This document shows, piece by piece, positions 2,394 through 7,248 of a stretch of DNA of 7,815 nt; within the stretch, counting starts at the first letter, position 1; every line of letters begins with the position of its first letter. Both the position numbers and the translations under genes were made by a program. The stretch comes from a virus (lineage: Duplodnaviria > Heunggongvirae > Uroviricota > Caudoviricetes). The DNA is taken from the IMG/VR virus record IMGVR_UViG_2690316227_000004; one strand, given 5' to 3'. Under the pieces are notes generated by a model. The model was not told the origin of the DNA. It worked only from the letters and a program-made list of their open reading frames with translations, and did not search any database.

Positions 2394-4305
2394 TCACTCC
2401 TCCGGACAGCTTCGCTGCCAGTTCTTTCAGGGTTGGCCGGGTCGTCTCTTCTTCCCGGGATTTTGCCAGTACAGCCAGATCAAGCTGCCAGCGTTGCACG
2501 GACACACGTAATGCCGCGTAGGCATACACCAGGCAGTCCAGCGCTTCGTTACGCCGCTTTTTGTTATCCCACAGCAGACGCATCTTTCCTTTTTCCCACT
2601 TCTCCACCAGCTCTTCCGCCACCAGTTGCTGCGCCTCTGTCTGCGAAAAAATCTCCGGATCATCAGGAAAACGGATGGCATACGACGTGGCTTCATCCGC
2701 AGGCGAGGGATCGGCTTTCATACGGGCATAGAGAATTTCTTTTGCGGTGTCCGTTCCCACTTCACACAGATACACGCCCCGCTGATTGCGGGTTTTTGGC
2801 ATGGTGATCACCGGCTTGCCATAGACAGATGCGCCTTTTACCGGCAGCACCCGGAAAACACCGTGTTTTTTTGATCTCTGATAAACAATTTCACCATCGA
2901 TCCCCCCGGTGTCCCAGCAGACACGGGAAATAGTCATTTCGGTGCCATCCGCATGGCGGTATTTTTTGTTGATCGCCGCATCCACACGTAACAGCGTCTC
3001 TTCCTCATCAGGACGCCCCATAATGATGATTTTATCCACCAGAAAGGCTTCCTCTCCCGGAGCCCATCCCCAGACATACATCTCAAAACGGTTTCGCTGC
3101 GAGTCAATGCCCGCCGTCAGATAAACCACCCGGGCAGGCACCGCCGCCGTGTAACGCACCACCTTATCCATCAGTACCTGGTGATCGAGTTTTTCGCCCA
3201 CGGCCTCTTCCCAGGTCTCGCCCAGCGTGGTGTTCACAAAGGTTTTCAGGCCGTTGGGATCTTTCAGTGCATCCAGCCAGTCATAGACAATCTGTACCCA
3301 GGTGGTGAACGGACTGTACGCCGTCCAGATATGGAACGTGATGGAGCGCGGCGGCGGAATTTCATCACCCCGGGCGCTGAAAAACGTCAGACCGTCACGG
3401 GTCCACATGCCCGTGTTTTCACAGATCCACCGCCCGTTGCTCTGGTCCAGTTCAGACTGATGGATCACGCAGCCATGATGTTCACAGAGGTAGAAAACAC
3501 TTTCAGGGCTGTCCTTCTCCCATTTAAGCCCAAAAGGCGTGGACTCATCGCCAAATTTCAGATACTGCTCCTCCCCACAGTGCGGGCAGGGCACATAAAA
3601 ACGCATAAAATGCGCCGACTCGTTAGCGGCTTTTTCGATCTGGCAGGTGCCTTTGATTTTAGGCGTCGAGCCGCGAATGGATTTTGGCCACACCGACCCC
3701 TCAATACGCTTATCCCCCAGCAGGGTTGGCGAGCCCTCTTTTTCGACATCCGGCTCGAACGAGGAAAGTTCGTCATAGCAGACCACGTCCACGGATTTTT
3801 CACGGTAGTTTTTGGCGGCAGCGCCGCCCAGGCACCAGAAACCGACGCCCGATGAAAAGCGTTTCAGCGTGAGAGTATTGTCACGATGTTTACGACCCAG
3901 CCATGGGGAAAGGTCTTTCAGGCATGGCACGTTCCGAATCGTCGCCTCCACGTGAGACTTCATAAAATCTTCAGCGGCAGAATCCGTGGGCTGAAAAAGC
4001 AGACTGTTTCGGGATTTATGCTCAATAAAATACCCGACCACCCCCAGCAACATCTTTGTATAGCCAACACGGGCAGATTTAATCAGATTAACAGTGCGGA
4101 TCTGATCATTCCCCATGCTGTTCATGATGGCGATCTGGAATGGCAGCGTTTTCCATTCGCCCTCACCATATGAAGATTCTTTAGGCAGATAATAATTTTG
4201 ATCAGCCCATTCAACTGGCGTCACCGGCAATGCCCTTATCAGGGGCTGTAATGCAGTTGTGACAGCGCTCATCATATTATTCAGTTGTTGCTCTGATATA
4301 TTCAT
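2377..4305 (-). CDS. A: Terminase large subunit (lambda gpA-like), 642 aa from ATG at 4303-4305
   Basis: Long collinear similarity to lambda gpA (VEWAD.NYYLPKES.Y.EG.W.TLPFQ.AIMN.MG.D.IR.VN..KSARVGY.KMLLGV..YFIEHK..., CPHCGEEQYLKFGD, WDTGGID, KRRNEALDC.VYA.AALR). The track ORF starts at a TTG 19 codons upstream (4360-4362); the first ATG (MNISEQQ..) aligns with the lambda gpA N-terminus (MNISNSQ..), so it is taken as the start. Overlaps the end of Nu1 as in lambda. Confidence 0.93.
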   Translation of the reverse strand: MNISEQQLNNMMSAVTTALQPLIRALPVTPVEWADQNYYLPKESSYGEGEWKTLPFQIAIMNSMGNDQIRTVNLIKSARVGYTKMLLGVVGYFIEHKSRNSLLFQPTDSAAEDFMKSHVEATIRNVPCLKDLSPWLGRKHRDNTLTLKRFSSGVGFWCLGGAAAKNYREKSVDVVCYDELSSFEPDVEKEGSPTLLGDKRIEGSVWPKSIRGSTPKIKGTCQIEKAANESAHFMRFYVPCPHCGEEQYLKFGDESTPFGLKWEKDSPESVFYLCEHHGCVIHQSELDQSNGRWICENTGMWTRDGLTFFSARGDEIPPPRSITFHIWTAYSPFTTWVQIVYDWLDALKDPNGLKTFVNTTLGETWEEAVGEKLDHQVLMDKVVRYTAAVPARVVYLTAGIDSQRNRFEMYVWGWAPGEEAFLVDKIIIMGRPDEEETLLRVDAAINKKYRHADGTEMTISRVCWDTGGIDGEIVYQRSKKHGVFRVLPVKGASVYGKPVITMPKTRNQRGVYLCEVGTDTAKEILYARMKADPSPADEATSYAIRFPDDPEIFSQTEAQQLVAEELVEKWEKGKMRLLWDNKKRRNEALDCLVYAYAALRVSVQRWQLDLAVLAKSREEETTRPTLKELAAKLSGGVNGYSR

Positions 4306-4783: not shown

Positions 4784-4810
4784 CTCCTCTCCATAAGCCA
4801 TCGATAAAAA

Positions 4811-4964
4811 GCGATACAACAACCATGTGTTTTTACAAAACCATTTGATATCATTTACATTTTTCGCATTGACGACATCAAAACACATCGTAAGGTTGTT
4901 GTATTTATTTTATTTTCACCTTACTTATCAATTAGATATACCAAACAATTAAACAACAACTCCC
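4811..4964 (-). promoter_or_regulatory. cosB-like terminase small-subunit binding region: three copies of an ACAACAAC-type element (R3/R2/R1-like) with an AT-rich spacer
   Basis: Between cosN and the Nu1 start there are three related elements: + strand 4942-4962 (caaacaattaaacaacaac), 4894-4903 (ggttgttgta, inverted) and 4814-4824 (atacaacaacc). Sites 2 and 3 belong to a longer imperfect inverted repeat (4814-4835 vs 4880-4906). The two-direct-plus-one-inverted layout, the AT-rich stretch 4904-4950 and the spacing to cosN and Nu1 mirror lambda cosB (R3-I1-R2-R1), though the motif is not lambda's. Confidence 0.55.
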
Positions 4965-4993
4965 CCTCAAAAAATCTCATAAATAGCGAAAAC

Positions 4994-5015
4994 CCGCGAG
5001 GTCGCCGCCCCGTAA
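4994..5015 (-). other. cosN nicking site; 12-nt cohesive end GGGCGGCGACCT (minus strand) at 4999-5010
   Basis: The reverse complement of 4981-5010 is GGGCGGCGACCTCGCGGGTTTTCGCTATTT, identical to the lambda left cohesive end and its first bases as recalled. The adjacent bases on the other side (reverse complement of 5011-5040, GGGTCCTTTCCGGCGATCCGGGCCGTTACG) closely match the lambda right end (GGGTCCTTTCCGGTGATCCGACAGGTTACG). Confidence 0.9.
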
Positions 5016-5070
5016 CGGCCCGGATCGCCGGAAAGGACCCGCTAAAATGATAATGGTTATCAGTTGCAGC
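5016..5070 (-). other. Conserved genome right-end segment upstream of cosN (expected to contain cosQ)
   Basis: Minus strand reads ..GATAACCATTATCATTTTAGCGGGTCCTTTCCGGCGATCCGGGCCGTTACG, resembling the lambda right end ..GATAATCATTATCACTTTACGGGTCCTTTCCGGTGATCCGACAGGTTACG. The exact cosQ boundaries were not determined. Confidence 0.5.
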
Positions 5071-5332
5071 AAATCCAGTTTCTTCCACCATCGCACCGGA
5101 CCAGCGACCATGAGGGGACAACGCCGCGCTCCGTTTACGCGGTAAACCCCGGTGTGTATCGTTTTTGATTATCCCCGCACACTCGCGCAGAGGAGTCTCC
5201 CTGTCGGGCTGCGGTCTCTGTTAATGAGGGAATACAGCGACGATACAGCGCATGATGTGTCAGGCTTGAATACCTTTATCCGTTAAAAGGGATATCAGTT
5301 AAGTTATCCCGTGTAGGGTATAAGCCATTATC

Positions 5333-5355
5333 AAGCCCACCAGTAGATGGGCTTT
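5333..5355. other. Stem-loop (7-bp stem, 8-nt loop) just downstream of the 85-aa ORF stop; possible weak terminator
   Basis: aagccca(5333-5339) / tgggctt(5348-5354) form a perfect 7-bp stem. No strong U-tract follows on the minus strand (GAUAAUGG); only a short T run follows on the + strand. Function is uncertain. Confidence 0.25.
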
Positions 5356-5362
5356 GTAATGG

Positions 5363-5620
5363 CTACTTCGCTTTTGCTTCCGCTCGCTTACGCCGGCGCT
5401 CTTCTTTCCTCTCGGCTTTTGCCATGTCCATGAATGCCTGCATGATCGAGTTCCGCATCATGTAGCTAACAAAGTGATGATTGACACAGCCGTTGAGGCG
5501 CAGCTGCTCGCCAAACTCATCCACCGAGGCCAATGCTTCCATCATACCCTTCTCGCCTTTCATGAACTCTGAGAAGTCGCGCCCCGCTCTGGAGGCGCAT
5601 TCAATGACACGATCACTCAT
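5363..5620 (-). CDS. Hypothetical small protein (85 aa) with a highly basic Lys/Arg/Glu-rich C-terminal tail; translationally coupled to the upstream KilA-N-like gene
   Basis: ORF with ATG at 5618-5620 overlapping the upstream gene's stop (ATGA). The C-terminus is AKAERKEERRRKRAEAKAK. No family recognised from memory. The coding call rests on the coupling and on its position in an otherwise gene-dense phage segment. Confidence 0.6.
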   Translation of the reverse strand: MSDRVIECASRAGRDFSEFMKGEKGMMEALASVDEFGEQLRLNGCVNHHFVSYMMRNSIMQAFMDMAKAERKEERRRKRAEAKAK

Positions 5621-6114
5621 CCCGGAAGCCCGGGGATCGAAATCTGCAACTGGTTAGCCAGGGAGTTAATTTCAGCGATCAAACCAGGTTTCGTGTAGCG
5701 CCATGCCGCGAGGCCTTGTCCACAGAAGCTCGCCATGTCTTTTTTCTGATCAAACTCATGACATTTCATGTTGAGCTGCGCACTTAAGCTGTTCCGATGA
5801 TGAAGCTCTCCGGTGAAGTAATCATCGAGGACTTTATAGGCTGCATATTTAAATCCGGGGTTTAGCCATGCTGCGTAATCATAAGCAACGAACTTTCCGC
5901 CATAAGTTCCACCGTGCGCACCGCGTTCCGTAAAAACCACAGATTCGTGGTTTTTCTCCAGCTCAGCCAAGAACTCTTTGGTCTGCTTGTTTCGCAGGTA
6001 GTGGTACGGAGATTCAGATTCACTTTTACCACTGGCTTTCCACATATCAGTGAGGCAGATCATGCCATCTTCACCGATACGGATTGGTTGATTGAAGAGG
6101 GTTAATGATTTCAT
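5617..6114 (-). CDS. KilA-N-like domain protein (putative DNA-binding accessory/moron protein), 165 aa
   Basis: ATG at 6112-6114. The N-terminal region IRIGEDGMICLTDMWKASGK....YLRNKQTKEFLAEL...GG.GTYG..FVAYDYAAWLNPGFKYAAYKVLDDY fits the pattern I recall for KilA-N/APSES-type domains. The assignment is from memory, not a search. Confidence 0.6.
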   Translation of the reverse strand: MKSLTLFNQPIRIGEDGMICLTDMWKASGKSESESPYHYLRNKQTKEFLAELEKNHESVVFTERGAHGGTYGGKFVAYDYAAWLNPGFKYAAYKVLDDYFTGELHHRNSLSAQLNMKCHEFDQKKDMASFCGQGLAAWRYTKPGLIAEINSLANQLQISIPGLPG

Positions 6115-6229
6115 AGCGTGTACCTACTCTTTGAAATGAACCTTTGCCGCACAGGAAACCAGCCCACCGAGGCTCGCCAGCACTAACTGGTATCCTCAAA
6201 GGCCCATTCCAAAGGGGCAGGTTCGGTGT

Positions 6230-6254
6230 AAAAAACATGCGTTGCGGTACGCAT
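6230..6254 (-). terminator. Rho-independent terminator (distal of a tandem pair downstream of Rz)
   Basis: Minus-strand RNA AUGCGU-ACCGCA-ACGCAU (perfect 6-bp stem, 6-nt loop) followed by G then UUUUUU (+ strand A-run 6230-6235). Confidence 0.55.
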
Positions 6255-6261
6255 TTATTGC

Positions 6262-6285
6262 AAAAAGCCCCGCATCGCGAGGCTC
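6262..6285 (-). terminator. Rho-independent terminator (proximal of a tandem pair downstream of Rz)
   Basis: Minus-strand RNA AGCCUCGC-GAU-GCGGGGCU (7-8 bp GC-rich stem with one G-U pair) followed by UUUUU, about 30 nt after the Rz stop. Confidence 0.6.
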
Positions 6286-6316
6286 ATTAAATGGACTTTG
6301 TGATTTGCAAAAAAAA

Positions 6317-6754
6317 TTATTTCAGGCATTGCGTCCTGATGTACTCCTGCAGGTAGTTAACCTGCGCGGTTATCTTGTCGATTCCACCTCGGAGACGGTA
6401 ATAATTGAGTTCAGCATCTGCTGTAAGTCCTGGGCTTTCTCCATCGCCCATGCTGCTGGCTCCGGTCGTTGACTTTGCACAGGTGGCGGAGACTTGCAGG
6501 CGCTTACGCCCAGCAGAAACATCAGCACGGAGACTTTCGATAGTCGCATTAGCATCAGCAAGCTCCTTTGTGTATCTGGCGTCAAGTTCTGCTACATCAC
6601 GTTGCCGCTTCTGCATATCAGCGATGATGGATGTGGCTTTATCGCGCTGCTCTTTGTAGGCGATGGCGTTATCACGGTAATGATTAACAGCCCATGAAAG
6701 GCAGACGATGAGGCAGATGACCAGAACGTAGATAATCGCGGTTACTCTGCTCAT
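6317..6754 (-). CDS. Rz: Spanin inner-membrane subunit (i-spanin, lambda Rz-like), 145 aa from ATG at 6752-6754
   Basis: [39 protein letters not shown]... is nearly identical at the N-terminus to lambda Rz ([39 protein letters not shown]) and shares YTKELADA and a C-terminal QC. The track ORF begins 4 codons upstream at GTG; the ATG overlapping the endolysin stop (ATGA) is preferred. Confidence 0.92.
6370..6555 (-). CDS. Rz1: Spanin outer-membrane lipoprotein subunit (o-spanin, Rz1-like), 61 aa, fully embedded in Rz in the +1 frame
   Basis: [20 protein letters not shown]|[16 protein letters not shown]... has a signal peptide, a lipobox (VSAC) and a Pro-rich mature region, as in lambda Rz1. 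AAGGAG lies 7 nt upstream of ATG 6553-6555. The track ORF start at 6583-6585 is a TTG. Confidence 0.8.
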
Positions 6755-7248
6755 TGTTGCCCCCACAAACAGACTTCACGCTCAATCTCACGGCGAGTCA
6801 TCAGCCCTTTCCATTGCTTACCGCCAGCGTATGTCCAGCGCCGTAGCTGATCACATGCGCCTTTGATATCGCCCTGGTTTATTTTGCGAAGAAGCGTCGA
6901 TGTTCTGAAATTGCCAGCGCCCACGTTGTAAACGAACGAGTAAAGAGCGCCGCGCGTTGTTTCCGGTATATCGACTTTGATGTACGGGTTTATTTGTCTG
7001 GCGACCGTGGCAAGGTCTTTATTCAGGAGGGCTTTGCATTCTGCTTCGGTATACGTTTTACCGGGCATGATGTCTTTTCCGGTGTGTCCATGACATACAG
7101 TCCATACGCCAACGATATCTTCGTATGGTATGTAGCTGACACCTTCCAGGCCATCGTCACCACTCGGACCAGTGATGAGCACAGACGCTATGGCAACAGC
7201 CCCACCACCAATAGCAGCAGCAACGGCTTTTCGTAATGATGGAGGCAT
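6751..7248 (-). CDS. R: SAR (signal-anchor-release) endolysin, T4-lysozyme-type muramidase (phage 21 R21-like), 165 aa
   Basis: The N-terminus [30 protein letters not shown] is a Gly/Ala-rich weakly hydrophobic SAR domain. It is followed by an E-x8-D-x5-T catalytic arrangement ([17 protein letters not shown]). The sequence is near-identical to the phage 21 endolysin as I recall it. The start ATG overlaps the holin stop (TAATG). Confidence 0.93.

Follow-up and report, generated by a model that had tools for sequence, protein, structure and literature searches.

The window, as we call the whole stretch of 7,815 nucleotides of phage DNA that was analysed, carries between its lysis genes and cos two real, conserved and mobile genes with an anatomy that reads, from 5' to 3' on the minus strand, two terminators, an mRNA hairpin of ~86 nt, a gene coding for a 165-aa protein, a gene coding for an 85-aa protein and a 3' hairpin. 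The explanation that we favour, with confidence that is evenly balanced, is that this is a promoter-less accessory cassette of the Bro network inside the late operon.

Both genes are in the orientation of the late operon, the 165-aa gene at 6114-5617 and the 85-aa gene at 5620-5363, and they overlap in an ATGA at 5620-5617. This agrees with the earlier note on this DNA, as does the run of K, R and E that can be read in translation at the C terminus of the 85-aa protein. The placement of the pair between Rz and cos also stands, as the lambda cosN cohesive-end sequence GGGCGGCGACCT is matched exactly at 5010-4999 on the minus strand, outside the cassette, which lies on its upstream side at a distance of ~310 bp. 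The claim that the pair is AT-richer than its flanks does not fare as well. The G+C content of the cassette is 49.7%, compared to 51.1% for the lysis genes, 46.2% for Nu1, 52.9% for the terminase, and 56.6% for the portal, so its composition is like that of its immediate neighbors and any difference is marginal or negligible. HK97 gp74, an HNH protein, acts in DNA packaging at cos, and the short distance to cosN, together with the fact that the cassette adjoins an HNH gene in HK97-like phages, could point to a packaging accessory factor of the same kind. We consider this hardly credible, as the same pair is found in the headful packager HK620 and also between tail genes, where no packaging site is near, and as the 85-aa gene is present in only 57 records of the phage collection.

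The 165-aa protein contains the KilA-N domain (PF04383) that had been expected at its N terminus, at residues 9 to 101 (E 7.4e-16, 58.4 bits versus a cutoff of 23.8), followed by a C-terminal ORF11CD3 domain (PF10549) that had been overlooked, at residues 109 to 161 (E 2.1e-12, 47.5 bits versus a cutoff of 25). Its match among the PHROGs is phrog_129, annotated as "transcriptional regulator." The AF2 model (pLDDT 83.5) has an alpha/beta N-terminal domain and then a long helical hairpin (H86-131 / H134-156). As to an APSES/KilA-N alpha/beta fold, the first 84 residues form two beta-hairpin strands plus helices, and the best Foldseek match to Mbp1 (1l3g) is weak (E 0.9). Foldseek of the whole model against the PDB gave no significant match. 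We were unable to identify a Phage_pRha domain (PF09669) in this protein at E <= 1. For both the 165-aa and the 85-aa proteins, NCBIfam gave no meaningful match, PDB sequence searches gave nothing, and Pfam revealed neither ANT, P22_AR_N, P22_AR_C, or AntA domains nor a nuclease domain (GIY-YIG/T5orf172, HNH, or LAGLIDADG). The founder of the KilA-N family, P1 KilA, has this domain in common with the 165-aa protein, and the HK620 gene hkbK was first annotated as KilA-like. P1 KilA is longer, has a different C terminus and is located in the lytic replicon. With its two domains, the 165-aa protein belongs to the Bro network (KilA-N, Bro-N, pRha, ANT, ORF11CD3, P63C, and T5orf172), a group of domain-shuffling phage proteins in which an N-terminal module of the DNA-binding type can be joined to one or another exchangeable module at the C terminus (Iyer et al. 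2002; PMC10111431). Such shuffling was seen here as well, with ORF11CD3 joined to KilA-N, pRha, or P22_AR_N and KilA-N joined to ORF11CD3 or P63C.

The same slot, between Rz/Rz1 and the packaging genes and in late-operon orientation, is occupied in other phages by the rha gene of P22 and phi80 (P22 ORF201; ES18 gp79). The leader of P22 rha has 93% nucleotide identity to that of the window over 127 nt, and homology with P22 is unbroken from Rz through the leader to 6102, 12 nt inside the gene, where the two sequences diverge. P22 Rha is composed of pRha and ORF11CD3; its C-terminal domain is 35% identical to that of the 165-aa protein, whereas its N-terminal module is pRha (PF09669) instead of KilA-N. 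The cassette has the slot, the leader, and the ORF11CD3 hairpin of P22 rha, with KilA-N in place of pRha. P22 has no homolog of the 85-aa gene behind rha, and the next gene, orf80, was rejected as its counterpart, being a DUF2560 gene homologous to HK620 hkbM. Rha blocks phage growth in IHF-deficient hosts, the only phenotype known for it, which is noted too in the annotation of ES18 gp79. The pair itself is present in other phages. The "kilA" pair of Stx phage 1717/2851 consists of the same genes (99.5% identity over a 1.2-kb query covering the pair), as does hkbK/hkbL of HK620 (91% nucleotide identity, from 6187 to 5326), and HK97 has the same small gene behind gp73 (KilA-N plus P63C). In all these phages the genes are labeled only "KilA-N domain-containing protein" or "hypothetical protein."

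The 85-aa gene, which has no Pfam match, matches phrog_875 (3e-54), and its homologs share 20 invariant residues in alignment A1. Strong purifying selection acts on it (median dN/dS, 0.11), and it is thus the real coding gene that had been proposed. An identical protein is coded on ~80 contigs with differing flanks. The AF2 model (pLDDT 92.9) shows three helices in a bundle, the C-terminal one being basic. Comparison with hhalign gave a probability of 96.4% (E 1e-9) with the T5orf172 protein P0132, which, like P0135, is a fused homolog, and the 85-aa protein is, by its core, a stand-alone homolog of the N-terminal domain of some T5orf172/MUG113 (GIY-YIG-like) proteins. Such T5orf172 proteins also occupy the same genome slots as the 85-aa gene. 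Another T5orf172 protein, D15, was discarded as a relative for its weak match (hhalign probability, 21%), and a zinc site formed by C8, C45, H48, and H49 was dropped, with C8 and C45 being replaced in the fused homologs. A comparable relation is known for CapR of PLE, a satellite of Vibrio cholerae, which is a small solo N-terminal domain of T5orf172 putative homing endonucleases acting as a DNA-binding repressor (PMC8096241). The likeness is one of domain relation to the T5orf172 proteins (P0132 and P0135 in our case). CapR needs four cysteines, while the 85-aa protein has two that are unconserved in the fused homologs.

The gene was found in Enterobacterales only, including 426 of the 5,426 complete Escherichia coli genomes, and a scan of genome contigs gave only 7 loci. 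It has several genome positions, but in all loci examined a Bro-network gene stands immediately 5' of it. The partners show four architectures (KilA-N+ORF11CD3, KilA-N+P63C, pRha+ANT, and pRha with an unassigned C terminus), and the pRha-type partners rule out an exclusive tie to KilA-N or ORF11CD3. The small ORFs behind the distant KilA-N+ORF11CD3 genes of phiEt88-like and Cronobacter prophages are unrelated to it, and a frameshifted remnant is left in Salmonella Kottbus. Through the ATGA overlap, the 85-aa gene is probably translationally coupled. One alternative is a toxin with its antidote or an obligate two-subunit complex, in which the KilA-N protein would be harmful and the coupled 85-aa protein its partner or neutralizer. 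P1 KilA is lethal on expression and, with the block by Rha in IHF-deficient hosts, offers a parallel; coupling would also set the production ratio, and in P0001 an ORF11CD3 tail is fused to an 85-aa-type protein. However, P0001 is a single 99%-identical sequence on one contig, for which a frameshift is the simplest explanation, the 85-aa gene follows four architectures without any single domain in common, and there are KilA-N+ORF11CD3 genes without the small gene in phiEt88 and Cronobacter prophages. We regard this possibility as unlikely.

How the cassette is transcribed is suggested by its upstream region, in which the two tandem terminators reported after Rz were recovered by sequence, terminator scan, and fold. 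The first terminator-like hairpin (6261..6285, minus strand; sequence and MFE fold) has a G+C-rich 9-bp stem at 6285-6265, a 3-nt loop, and five U at 6266-6262. The second (6230..6254, minus strand; terminator scan and fold) has a 6-bp stem, ATGCGT/ACGCAT, at 6254-6237, a 6-nt loop, and six U at 6235-6230. They had been taken as a bracket of the cassette, but homology with HK97 and mEp234 spans Rz and the first hairpin and stops at 6262, so this hairpin is part of the Rz module and travels with it. The second one moves with the leader in L019, L022, L059, L071, and L074, as homology begins at 6252 there. A scan of 4800-6800 on the minus strand, which includes the interval from Rz to the gene, found no sigma-70-like promoter; it used the strict sigma-70 consensus and could miss a weak or activator-dependent promoter. 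As two terminators precede the cassette, only antiterminated late transcription should reach it.

These signals bear directly on the view of the pair as a classical moron, that is, a self-contained unit expressed from the prophage that would defend the lysogen through superinfection exclusion or, as BstA does, through abortive infection. True morons are known from this part of the genome, with bor in the Rz-to-cos interval of lambda and pid in the Rz-to-terminase interval of P22-like phages. The prophage Abi protein BstA carries a KilA-N-like domain at its N terminus (PMC8585504), and for the 165-aa protein PADLOC gives a match to its candidate PDC-S22 (E 1.1e-8). This match, however, is the only one from PADLOC and reaches just 32.6 bits, with its best stretch at residues 60 to 90, inside KilA-N. 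The architecture is also not that of BstA, since the C-terminal domain is ORF11CD3 and the gene belongs to the late operon, while BstA has ~307 aa, an unrelated C-terminal domain, a position next to cI with which it is cotranscribed, and an aba self-immunity element, none of which apply to the cassette. The lack of a detected promoter, the two terminators directly upstream, the lack of a U tract downstream, and the co-orientation with the late operon all speak against prophage expression, and the same cassette is found between tail genes in other phages. In BTP1, a P22-like prophage, the highly expressed genes in lysogeny (TPM of >100) are bstA, cI, pid, and gtrAC, and a single polycistronic operon contains the late genes (PMC7067206). 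BTP1 carries the same leader with rha in the slot of the cassette, and rha is not among the reported highly expressed genes, although this transcriptome concerns rha and not the KilA-N/85-aa pair. We found no evidence in favor of the superinfection-exclusion or anti-defense role that had been suggested, and lysogen protection by a moron seems to us quite improbable.

Between the second terminator and the 165-aa gene, at 6129..6214 on the minus strand, lies the structured mRNA leader, identified from alignment A2, RNAalifold, and a covariance model. This is a previously unannotated conserved RNA structure. RNAalifold on alignment A2 gives a long interrupted hairpin of ~86 nt with 34 base pairs in three helices, the 3' end of which abuts the Shine-Dalgarno sequence (GG at 6124-6123, with the ATG at 6114). 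In alignment A2 there are compensatory changes at seven pairs and 97.7% of the cells are paired, values that were reached by 0 of 500 shuffles. In a wider set of 40 diverse copies, 27 of the 34 pairs change on both sides, a count that rests on an alignment fitted to the covariance model. The model is strand specific, with 158.8 bits in sense and 18.3 in antisense. No Rfam match was found for the leader, its sole overlap (above E 0.1) being with a 25-nt DUF805b hit of 14.1 bits versus a gathering threshold of 35.6. This and the rimP and isrJ matches are at chance level, as is a DicF match at 3800-3829 (E 0.89).

The covariance model finds 100 copies of the leader. One of them is truncated at a contig end, and in each of the other 99 an ORF of 67 or more codons begins at an ATG at the expected distance. 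Scanning of representatives of ten downstream gene types identified pRha with or without ORF11CD3, KilA-N, ANT, T5orf172, or HNH_3+AP2 (one of the ten had no Pfam match), and a P22_AR_N+ORF11CD3 gene stands behind another copy. A leader of the window type is present in 954 of the 5,426 complete E. coli genomes, with up to 5 copies per genome, mostly unannotated. The basal helix contains or borders the Shine-Dalgarno sequence, for which the mean unpaired probability is 0.24 in the window (median across variants, 0.49), and in the ES18 variant the scanned Shine-Dalgarno region is unpaired. As the RNAalifold consensus hairpin stops ~5 nt before the GG, occlusion is partial in many variants.

The other end of the cassette is formed by the 3' hairpin (5323..5364, minus strand; inverted repeat I1), which begins inside the stop codon of the 85-aa gene and has a two-tier stem with 17-nt arms at 5364-5348 and 5339-5323 (fold z = -5.6 versus shuffles). 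The stem-loop that the earlier note placed at 5333-5355 is therefore real but larger than described, and it is not followed by a U tract, nor did the terminator scan make a call there. Its core is nearly invariant behind different upstream genes, and C-to-T changes in it keep G.U pairs. The hairpin marks the 3' boundary of the exchanged module: in many phages homology is lost at 5326, and the hairpin piece is duplicated around inserted DNA. Compared with other phages, breaks in nucleotide homology recur at 6262/6252, 6187, 6102, 5605, and 5326, and in phages of Klebsiella and Enterobacter the pair also lies between tail genes, which supports the independently exchanged module that had been postulated. 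It may be that the leader and the 3' hairpin owe their conservation mainly to a role as recombination linkers and not to RNA regulation.

In its organization the cassette recalls the free-standing homing endonuclease genes of T4-like phages (seg and mob), which lack promoters of their own, use the transcription of the host operon, and have a stable RNA hairpin that sequesters the ribosome binding site and limits translation (PMC2988022). Judged from sequence, the cassette has both traits, with no promoter in the strict scan and an RNA hairpin next to the site of ribosome binding. The T4 genes differ in coding for nuclease domains and in having an internal late promoter that bypasses the hairpin, neither of which was found in the cassette. 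A purely selfish origin could be considered, in which the cassette would be a degenerate element of the free-standing homing endonuclease type, kept by mobility and linkage without a phage function. The leader also precedes HNH_3+AP2 and T5orf172 (GIY-YIG-like) genes, the 85-aa protein corresponds to a T5orf172 N-terminal domain, cassettes recur in the same intergenic slots, and phage Dewey has an HNH gene in its Rz-to-cos interval. Yet neither protein has a nuclease domain, and the strong conservation of both genes, with the low dN/dS of the 85-aa gene and its identity on so many contigs, speaks for a maintained activity, which makes this origin rather doubtful.

Another alternative is an antirepressor module, in which one or both proteins would bind and inactivate the repressors of coresident prophages or satellites, leading to cross-induction, by acting protein on protein and not on DNA. 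Homologs of the 85-aa gene end immI-like operons, made up of Arc/Mnt, Arc, Bro-N+P22_AR_C, pRha (with or without ANT), and the small gene; RefSeq labels P22 Rha and its relatives as "anti-repressor"; and Gifsy phages have established antirepressors that act in trans (Lemire 2011, as cited in PMC7067206). Nevertheless, these labels come from annotation transfer and not from experiments, neither protein has the ANT, P22_AR_N/C, or AntA domains, late lytic expression follows the decision of the phage itself, and the immI-like loci lack the structured leader according to the covariance model. We would therefore not expect an antirepressor here.

We return to the accessory cassette of the late operon as the best explanation. 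Transcription would come only from Q-antiterminated late transcription reading through both terminators. The leader hairpin, with its basal helix holding or abutting the Shine-Dalgarno sequence, would hold the first gene at a low or conditional level of translation, and it could be relieved by RNase III-type processing or by melting of the hairpin. The 85-aa gene seems to lack a Shine-Dalgarno sequence that it could use and would be translated by termination-reinitiation, so its expression probably depends on translation of the preceding Bro gene. The 165-aa protein may be a dimeric sequence-specific DNA binder, with KilA-N binding and the helical hairpin of ORF11CD3 dimerizing, and the 85-aa protein a solo targeting domain of the kind found in GIY-YIG-like T5orf172 proteins, whose basic helix could contact nucleic acid. 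Together, both would act as nonessential late regulators of the DNA of the phage or of a coresident element, while the conserved leader and 3' hairpin could double as homology arms for swapping gene contents between phages. A broader proposal, to which we give slightly less credence than an even balance, is that the leader and the 3' hairpin define an undescribed cassette system of Enterobacterales temperate phages. In such a system, the RNA would act in cis to throttle or gate the translation of genes carried in late operons, the ends would be portable recombination arms for exchanging the genes between them, and the 85-aa protein would be an unnamed new Bro-network module, namely, the solo targeting domain of T5orf172 enzymes. 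The gated genes would be of the KilA-N, pRha, P22_AR_N, ANT, T5orf172, and HNH classes, which are DNA binding or endonucleolytic and potentially harmful.

This analysis revealed no new virulence, defense, or anti-defense function. Among the carriers of the small gene or the leader of the cassette are Stx-converting O157:H7 phages. Bro-network genes (KilA-N, Rha, Bro, and Ant-like) are among the commonest genes annotated without a function in temperate phages and satellites, and a common RNA leader would give a shared handle on their expression. Its covariance model is a way to find them, and the leader corrects start-codon calls, for example, that of P22 rha. Last, the links of the 85-aa protein with T5orf172 and of the leader with HNH and T5orf172 genes tie the Bro network closer to the biology of homing endonucleases.

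The window corresponds to the late region of a lambda-like prophage, in which the ORFs, read on the minus strand, follow the order holin, endolysin, Rz, cassette interval, cos, Nu1, terminase A, W, and portal. The lysis genes code for a 68-aa holin (7454-7248), an endolysin (7248-6751), and Rz (6766-6317), with an embedded Rz1-like frame (6370-6585). The holin has a charged C terminus and the endolysin a hydrophobic N terminus (residues ~9 to 27), and we take both to resemble the pinholin/SAR-endolysin type of phage 21. The cosN sequence GGGCGGCGACCT (5010-4999, minus strand), about 310 bp downstream of the cassette, matches that of lambda exactly and has lambda-like flanks, so packaging is from a lambda-type cos. 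Within the interval, both cassette genes (6114-5617 and 5620-5363), their ATGA overlap (5620-5617), and the K/R/E tail of the 85-aa product are present as described in the earlier note, as are two terminator-like hairpins with U runs after Rz (6285-6261 and 6254-6230). The proposed AT richness is marginal, with a GC content of 49.7% versus 51.1% in the lysis genes, 46.2% in Nu1, and 52.9% in the terminase. The 1.2-kb stretch around the cassette is 99.5% identical to the Stx2-converting phages 1717 and 2851 and several Stx2a phages, and 100% identical to one Escherichia coli chromosome. The cassette is real. Its genes are not new as sequences, as the database entries for HK620 hkbK/hkbL and the HK97 gp73 region are over 20 years old, and its proteins belong to a known kind.

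The KilA-N domain expected in the 165-aa protein was recovered with Pfam (residues 9 to 101, E = 7.4e-16), followed by a second domain, ORF11CD3 (residues 109 to 161, E = 2.1e-12). Both domains belong to the Bro network, a set of phage proteins with shuffled N- and C-terminal modules (Iyer et al. 2002, cited in PMC10111431). A direct test found this shuffling, with P22 Rha combining pRha with ORF11CD3 and HK97 gp73 combining KilA-N with P63C, while on one Salmonella contig a P22_AR_N + ORF11CD3 gene adjoins two KilA-N + ORF11CD3 genes. The C-terminal domains of P22 Rha and the 165-aa protein are 35% identical, and both proteins end in IPGL. The AF2 model (pLDDT 83.5) contains an alpha/beta N-terminal domain followed by a hairpin of a 46-residue and a 23-residue helix, a predicted shape typical of dimerization modules; a Foldseek search of this model against the PDB found nothing significant. 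More distant relatives (50 to 58% identity) in Erwinia phage phiEt88, Cronobacter, and Salmonella all occupy the slot between lysis genes and terminase.

The 85-aa ORF is a real gene. It has no match in Pfam or NCBIfam and belongs to phrog_875. Its distribution is narrow: its matches form 138 clusters at 90% identity, a search of 1.8 billion proteins gave just 22 representatives at 50% identity, and all matches with a source name are from Enterobacterales. Twenty residues are invariant in an alignment of sequences down to 61% identity, the identical protein is encoded by 20 distinct nucleotide variants, and the median pairwise dN/dS is 0.11. In every locus examined, a Bro-network gene lies directly 5' of the small gene, usually overlapping it or 2 nt apart. 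The partner type and genome position vary. The partner is KilA-N + ORF11CD3 after Rz in this window, HK620, and the Stx phages, and between the tape-measure and Dit genes in an Enterobacter prophage; it is KilA-N + P63C after Rz in HK97 and mEp234. In Klebsiella phages, where the pair lies among tail genes, the partner is of either KilA-N type. The reverse link fails, as some KilA-N + ORF11CD3 genes have no small gene. A small gene trailing four architectures with no single domain in common fits poorly with a specific toxin-antidote pair. In immI-like Arc/Ant operons, the small gene stands at the end, behind pRha + ANT or pRha with an unassigned C terminus; this context of some homologs suggests an antirepressor role, but no antirepressor domain is present.

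The core of the small protein (residues 4 to 59) resembles the N-terminal domain of proteins with a C-terminal T5orf172/MUG113 (GIY-YIG-like) domain. The match to one of these relatives, P0132, has a probability of 96.4% (E = 1e-9, hhalign), and P0135 and phrog_4284 also support it. The T5orf172-fused relatives share the cassette slots, between the lysis genes and the small terminase or in the tail region beside a KilA-N + P63C gene. By this homology, the small protein is a solo N-terminal domain of T5orf172 proteins and thus itself a Bro-network module, an identity that appears to be new. The PLE repressor CapR stands in the same relation to T5orf172 endonucleases (PMC8096241), and the small protein would likewise be a solo counterpart. 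A 123-aa protein from one NCBI contig (P0001) joins the last ~25 residues of ORF11CD3, a frameshifted linker, and the complete 85-aa protein, most likely because of a frameshift or sequencing error at the ATGA overlap rather than as a genuine fusion.

Nucleotide homology to about 90 related loci revealed recurrent breaks at 6262, 6252, 6187, 6102, 5605, and 5326. On one side of 6262 lie Rz and the first terminator, as in HK97; at 6102, the homology to P22, unbroken from Rz onward, ends 12 nt into the gene; and at 5605, HK97 has a different KilA-N gene with the same small gene. The break at 5326 is the 3' end of the downstream hairpin, which is present but larger than the stem-loop noted before, with 17-nt arms (5364-5348 and 5339-5323) and no U tract. 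It begins within the stop codon and folds with z = -5.6 relative to shuffled sequences. Its core is almost unchanged from one upstream gene to another, with ES18 gp79 among them; where the core differs, a C opposite G has become T, which keeps G.U pairs on the sense strand. This conserved boundary hairpin appears to be new. The piece at 5360-5275, which contains the 3' hairpin, is repeated in many phages after 160 to 800 bp of inserted DNA (e.g., L001:2957-3043 and L013:5860-5974 in two related loci), and it looks as though each successive cassette brings its own copy of the boundary hairpin.

Boundary definition also drew attention to the 114 nt before the ATG, which are 75 to 95% identical upstream of quite different genes: P22 rha, ES18 gp79, a Hafnia phage Rha gene, a Klebsiella KilA-N + P63C gene, a Klebsiella phage HNH gene between Q and holin, and a Salmonella P22_AR_N + ORF11CD3 gene. 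This leader forms a long, interrupted hairpin of 34 pairs (6214-6129, minus strand). In 18 variants aligned with MAFFT, pairing extends to 97.7% of the cells and 7 pairs show compensatory changes, versus a shuffled mean of 2.6 +/- 0.9 (0 of 500 shuffles reach the observed value) and 0 to 2 in slid controls. Among 40 diverse copies, in an alignment fitted to the model, both sides change in 27 of the 34 pairs and 87.5% of cells pair, versus 70% in shuffled and 40 to 51% in slid controls. The covariance model, R1, scores 158.8 bits on the sense strand of the window and 18.3 on the antisense; Rfam contained no match. The Shine-Dalgarno sequence lies in or just past the basal helix, and the probability that it is unpaired is 0.24 in the window (median over 37 variants, 0.49).

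Weaker R1 matches precede HK620 hkbK, genes of Cronobacter and Trabulsiella, four Bro genes at separate places on a single Salmonella contig, and a T5orf172 gene whose contig has 33% GC. A 17- to 18-nt pattern from the divergent leader group retrieved 80 viral contigs, in which R1 gave 75 matches (E <= 0.01) in 73 of the 80. Among 100 leader matches, one is cut by a contig end and all 99 others are followed by an ORF of at least 67 codons with its ATG at the expected distance. Representative genes code for pRha with or without ORF11CD3, KilA-N, ANT, T5orf172, and HNH_3+AP2, and one lacks any match in Pfam. Counting only the window-type leader, 954 of 5,426 complete E. coli genomes carry it, mostly unannotated, and copies at about 100 other loci (e.g., L005:2045-2132, L111:1515-1602, and L004:1908-2000) place it in many enterobacterial temperate phages. 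The link to endonuclease genes is what a purely selfish element would show, but such an element would not account for the strong conservation of two nuclease-free proteins.

The annotated GTG start of P22 rha/ORF201 falls within the leader hairpin (L005:2076-2144; NC_002371 39575-39643), and its first 23 codons are hairpin sequence. As the starts of the window gene and ES18 gp79 align with the codon-24 ATG (MNELIANHDF...), P22 Rha probably has 178 aa, not 201. The annotated starts of the Hafnia phage Meifeng Rha gene and the Klebsiella RothC HNH gene likewise lie within the leader. In Salmonella Kottbus (L106, AAHRTZ010000048, 443-3768), one lysis cassette is ringed by four leader-plus-Bro-gene units (KilA-N+ORF11CD3, P22_AR_N+ORF11CD3, KilA-N+ORF11CD3 with a frameshifted small-gene remnant, and another KilA-N gene), and the locus is a hotspot for such units. 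A Scandinavium hiltneri prophage (L009:3561-5204) carries, in order, the leader, an HNH_3+AP2 homing-endonuclease-type gene, a KilA-N+P63C gene, and the small gene, so endonuclease and pair share one unit.

The earlier reading of the cassette as a moron does not agree with these data: no coding-strand promoter was found for it, two terminators precede it, and its 3' hairpin lacks a U tract. In BTP1, the late genes make up one operon, and high expression in lysogeny is limited to bstA, cI, pid, and gtrAC (PMC7067206). Because of the missing promoter, the terminators, and the BTP1 operon, the cassette would be expressed late only, and a lysogen-expressed moron or defense gene is unlikely. BTP1 itself carries the leader and rha. 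In P22-like phages (Salmonella phage P6, L116:2040-2300; BTP1), the lysogeny-expressed gene of the interval is pid, which lies between rha and gene 3 but on the other strand, the true moron position of the region. For a late-expressed cassette, the leader may throttle translation or, equally possibly, serve as an RNase III-type processing site, for which the lambda N leader is a precedent. Throttling has an analogy in the free-standing endonuclease genes of T4, promoter-less cassettes with the ribosome binding site sequestered by hairpins (PMC2988022). The small protein would be made by reinitiation, because its ATG has no usable preceding Shine-Dalgarno sequence.

Both products may bind DNA, and the cassette contents would be exchanged by recombination within conserved ends. 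To our knowledge, the only phenotype among the nearest relatives is that of Rha, which Henthorn and Friedman reportedly found in 1995 to inhibit phage growth on IHF-deficient hosts; the ES18 annotation echoes it. A structured leader common to many Bro-network and endonuclease genes appears to be a new organization.
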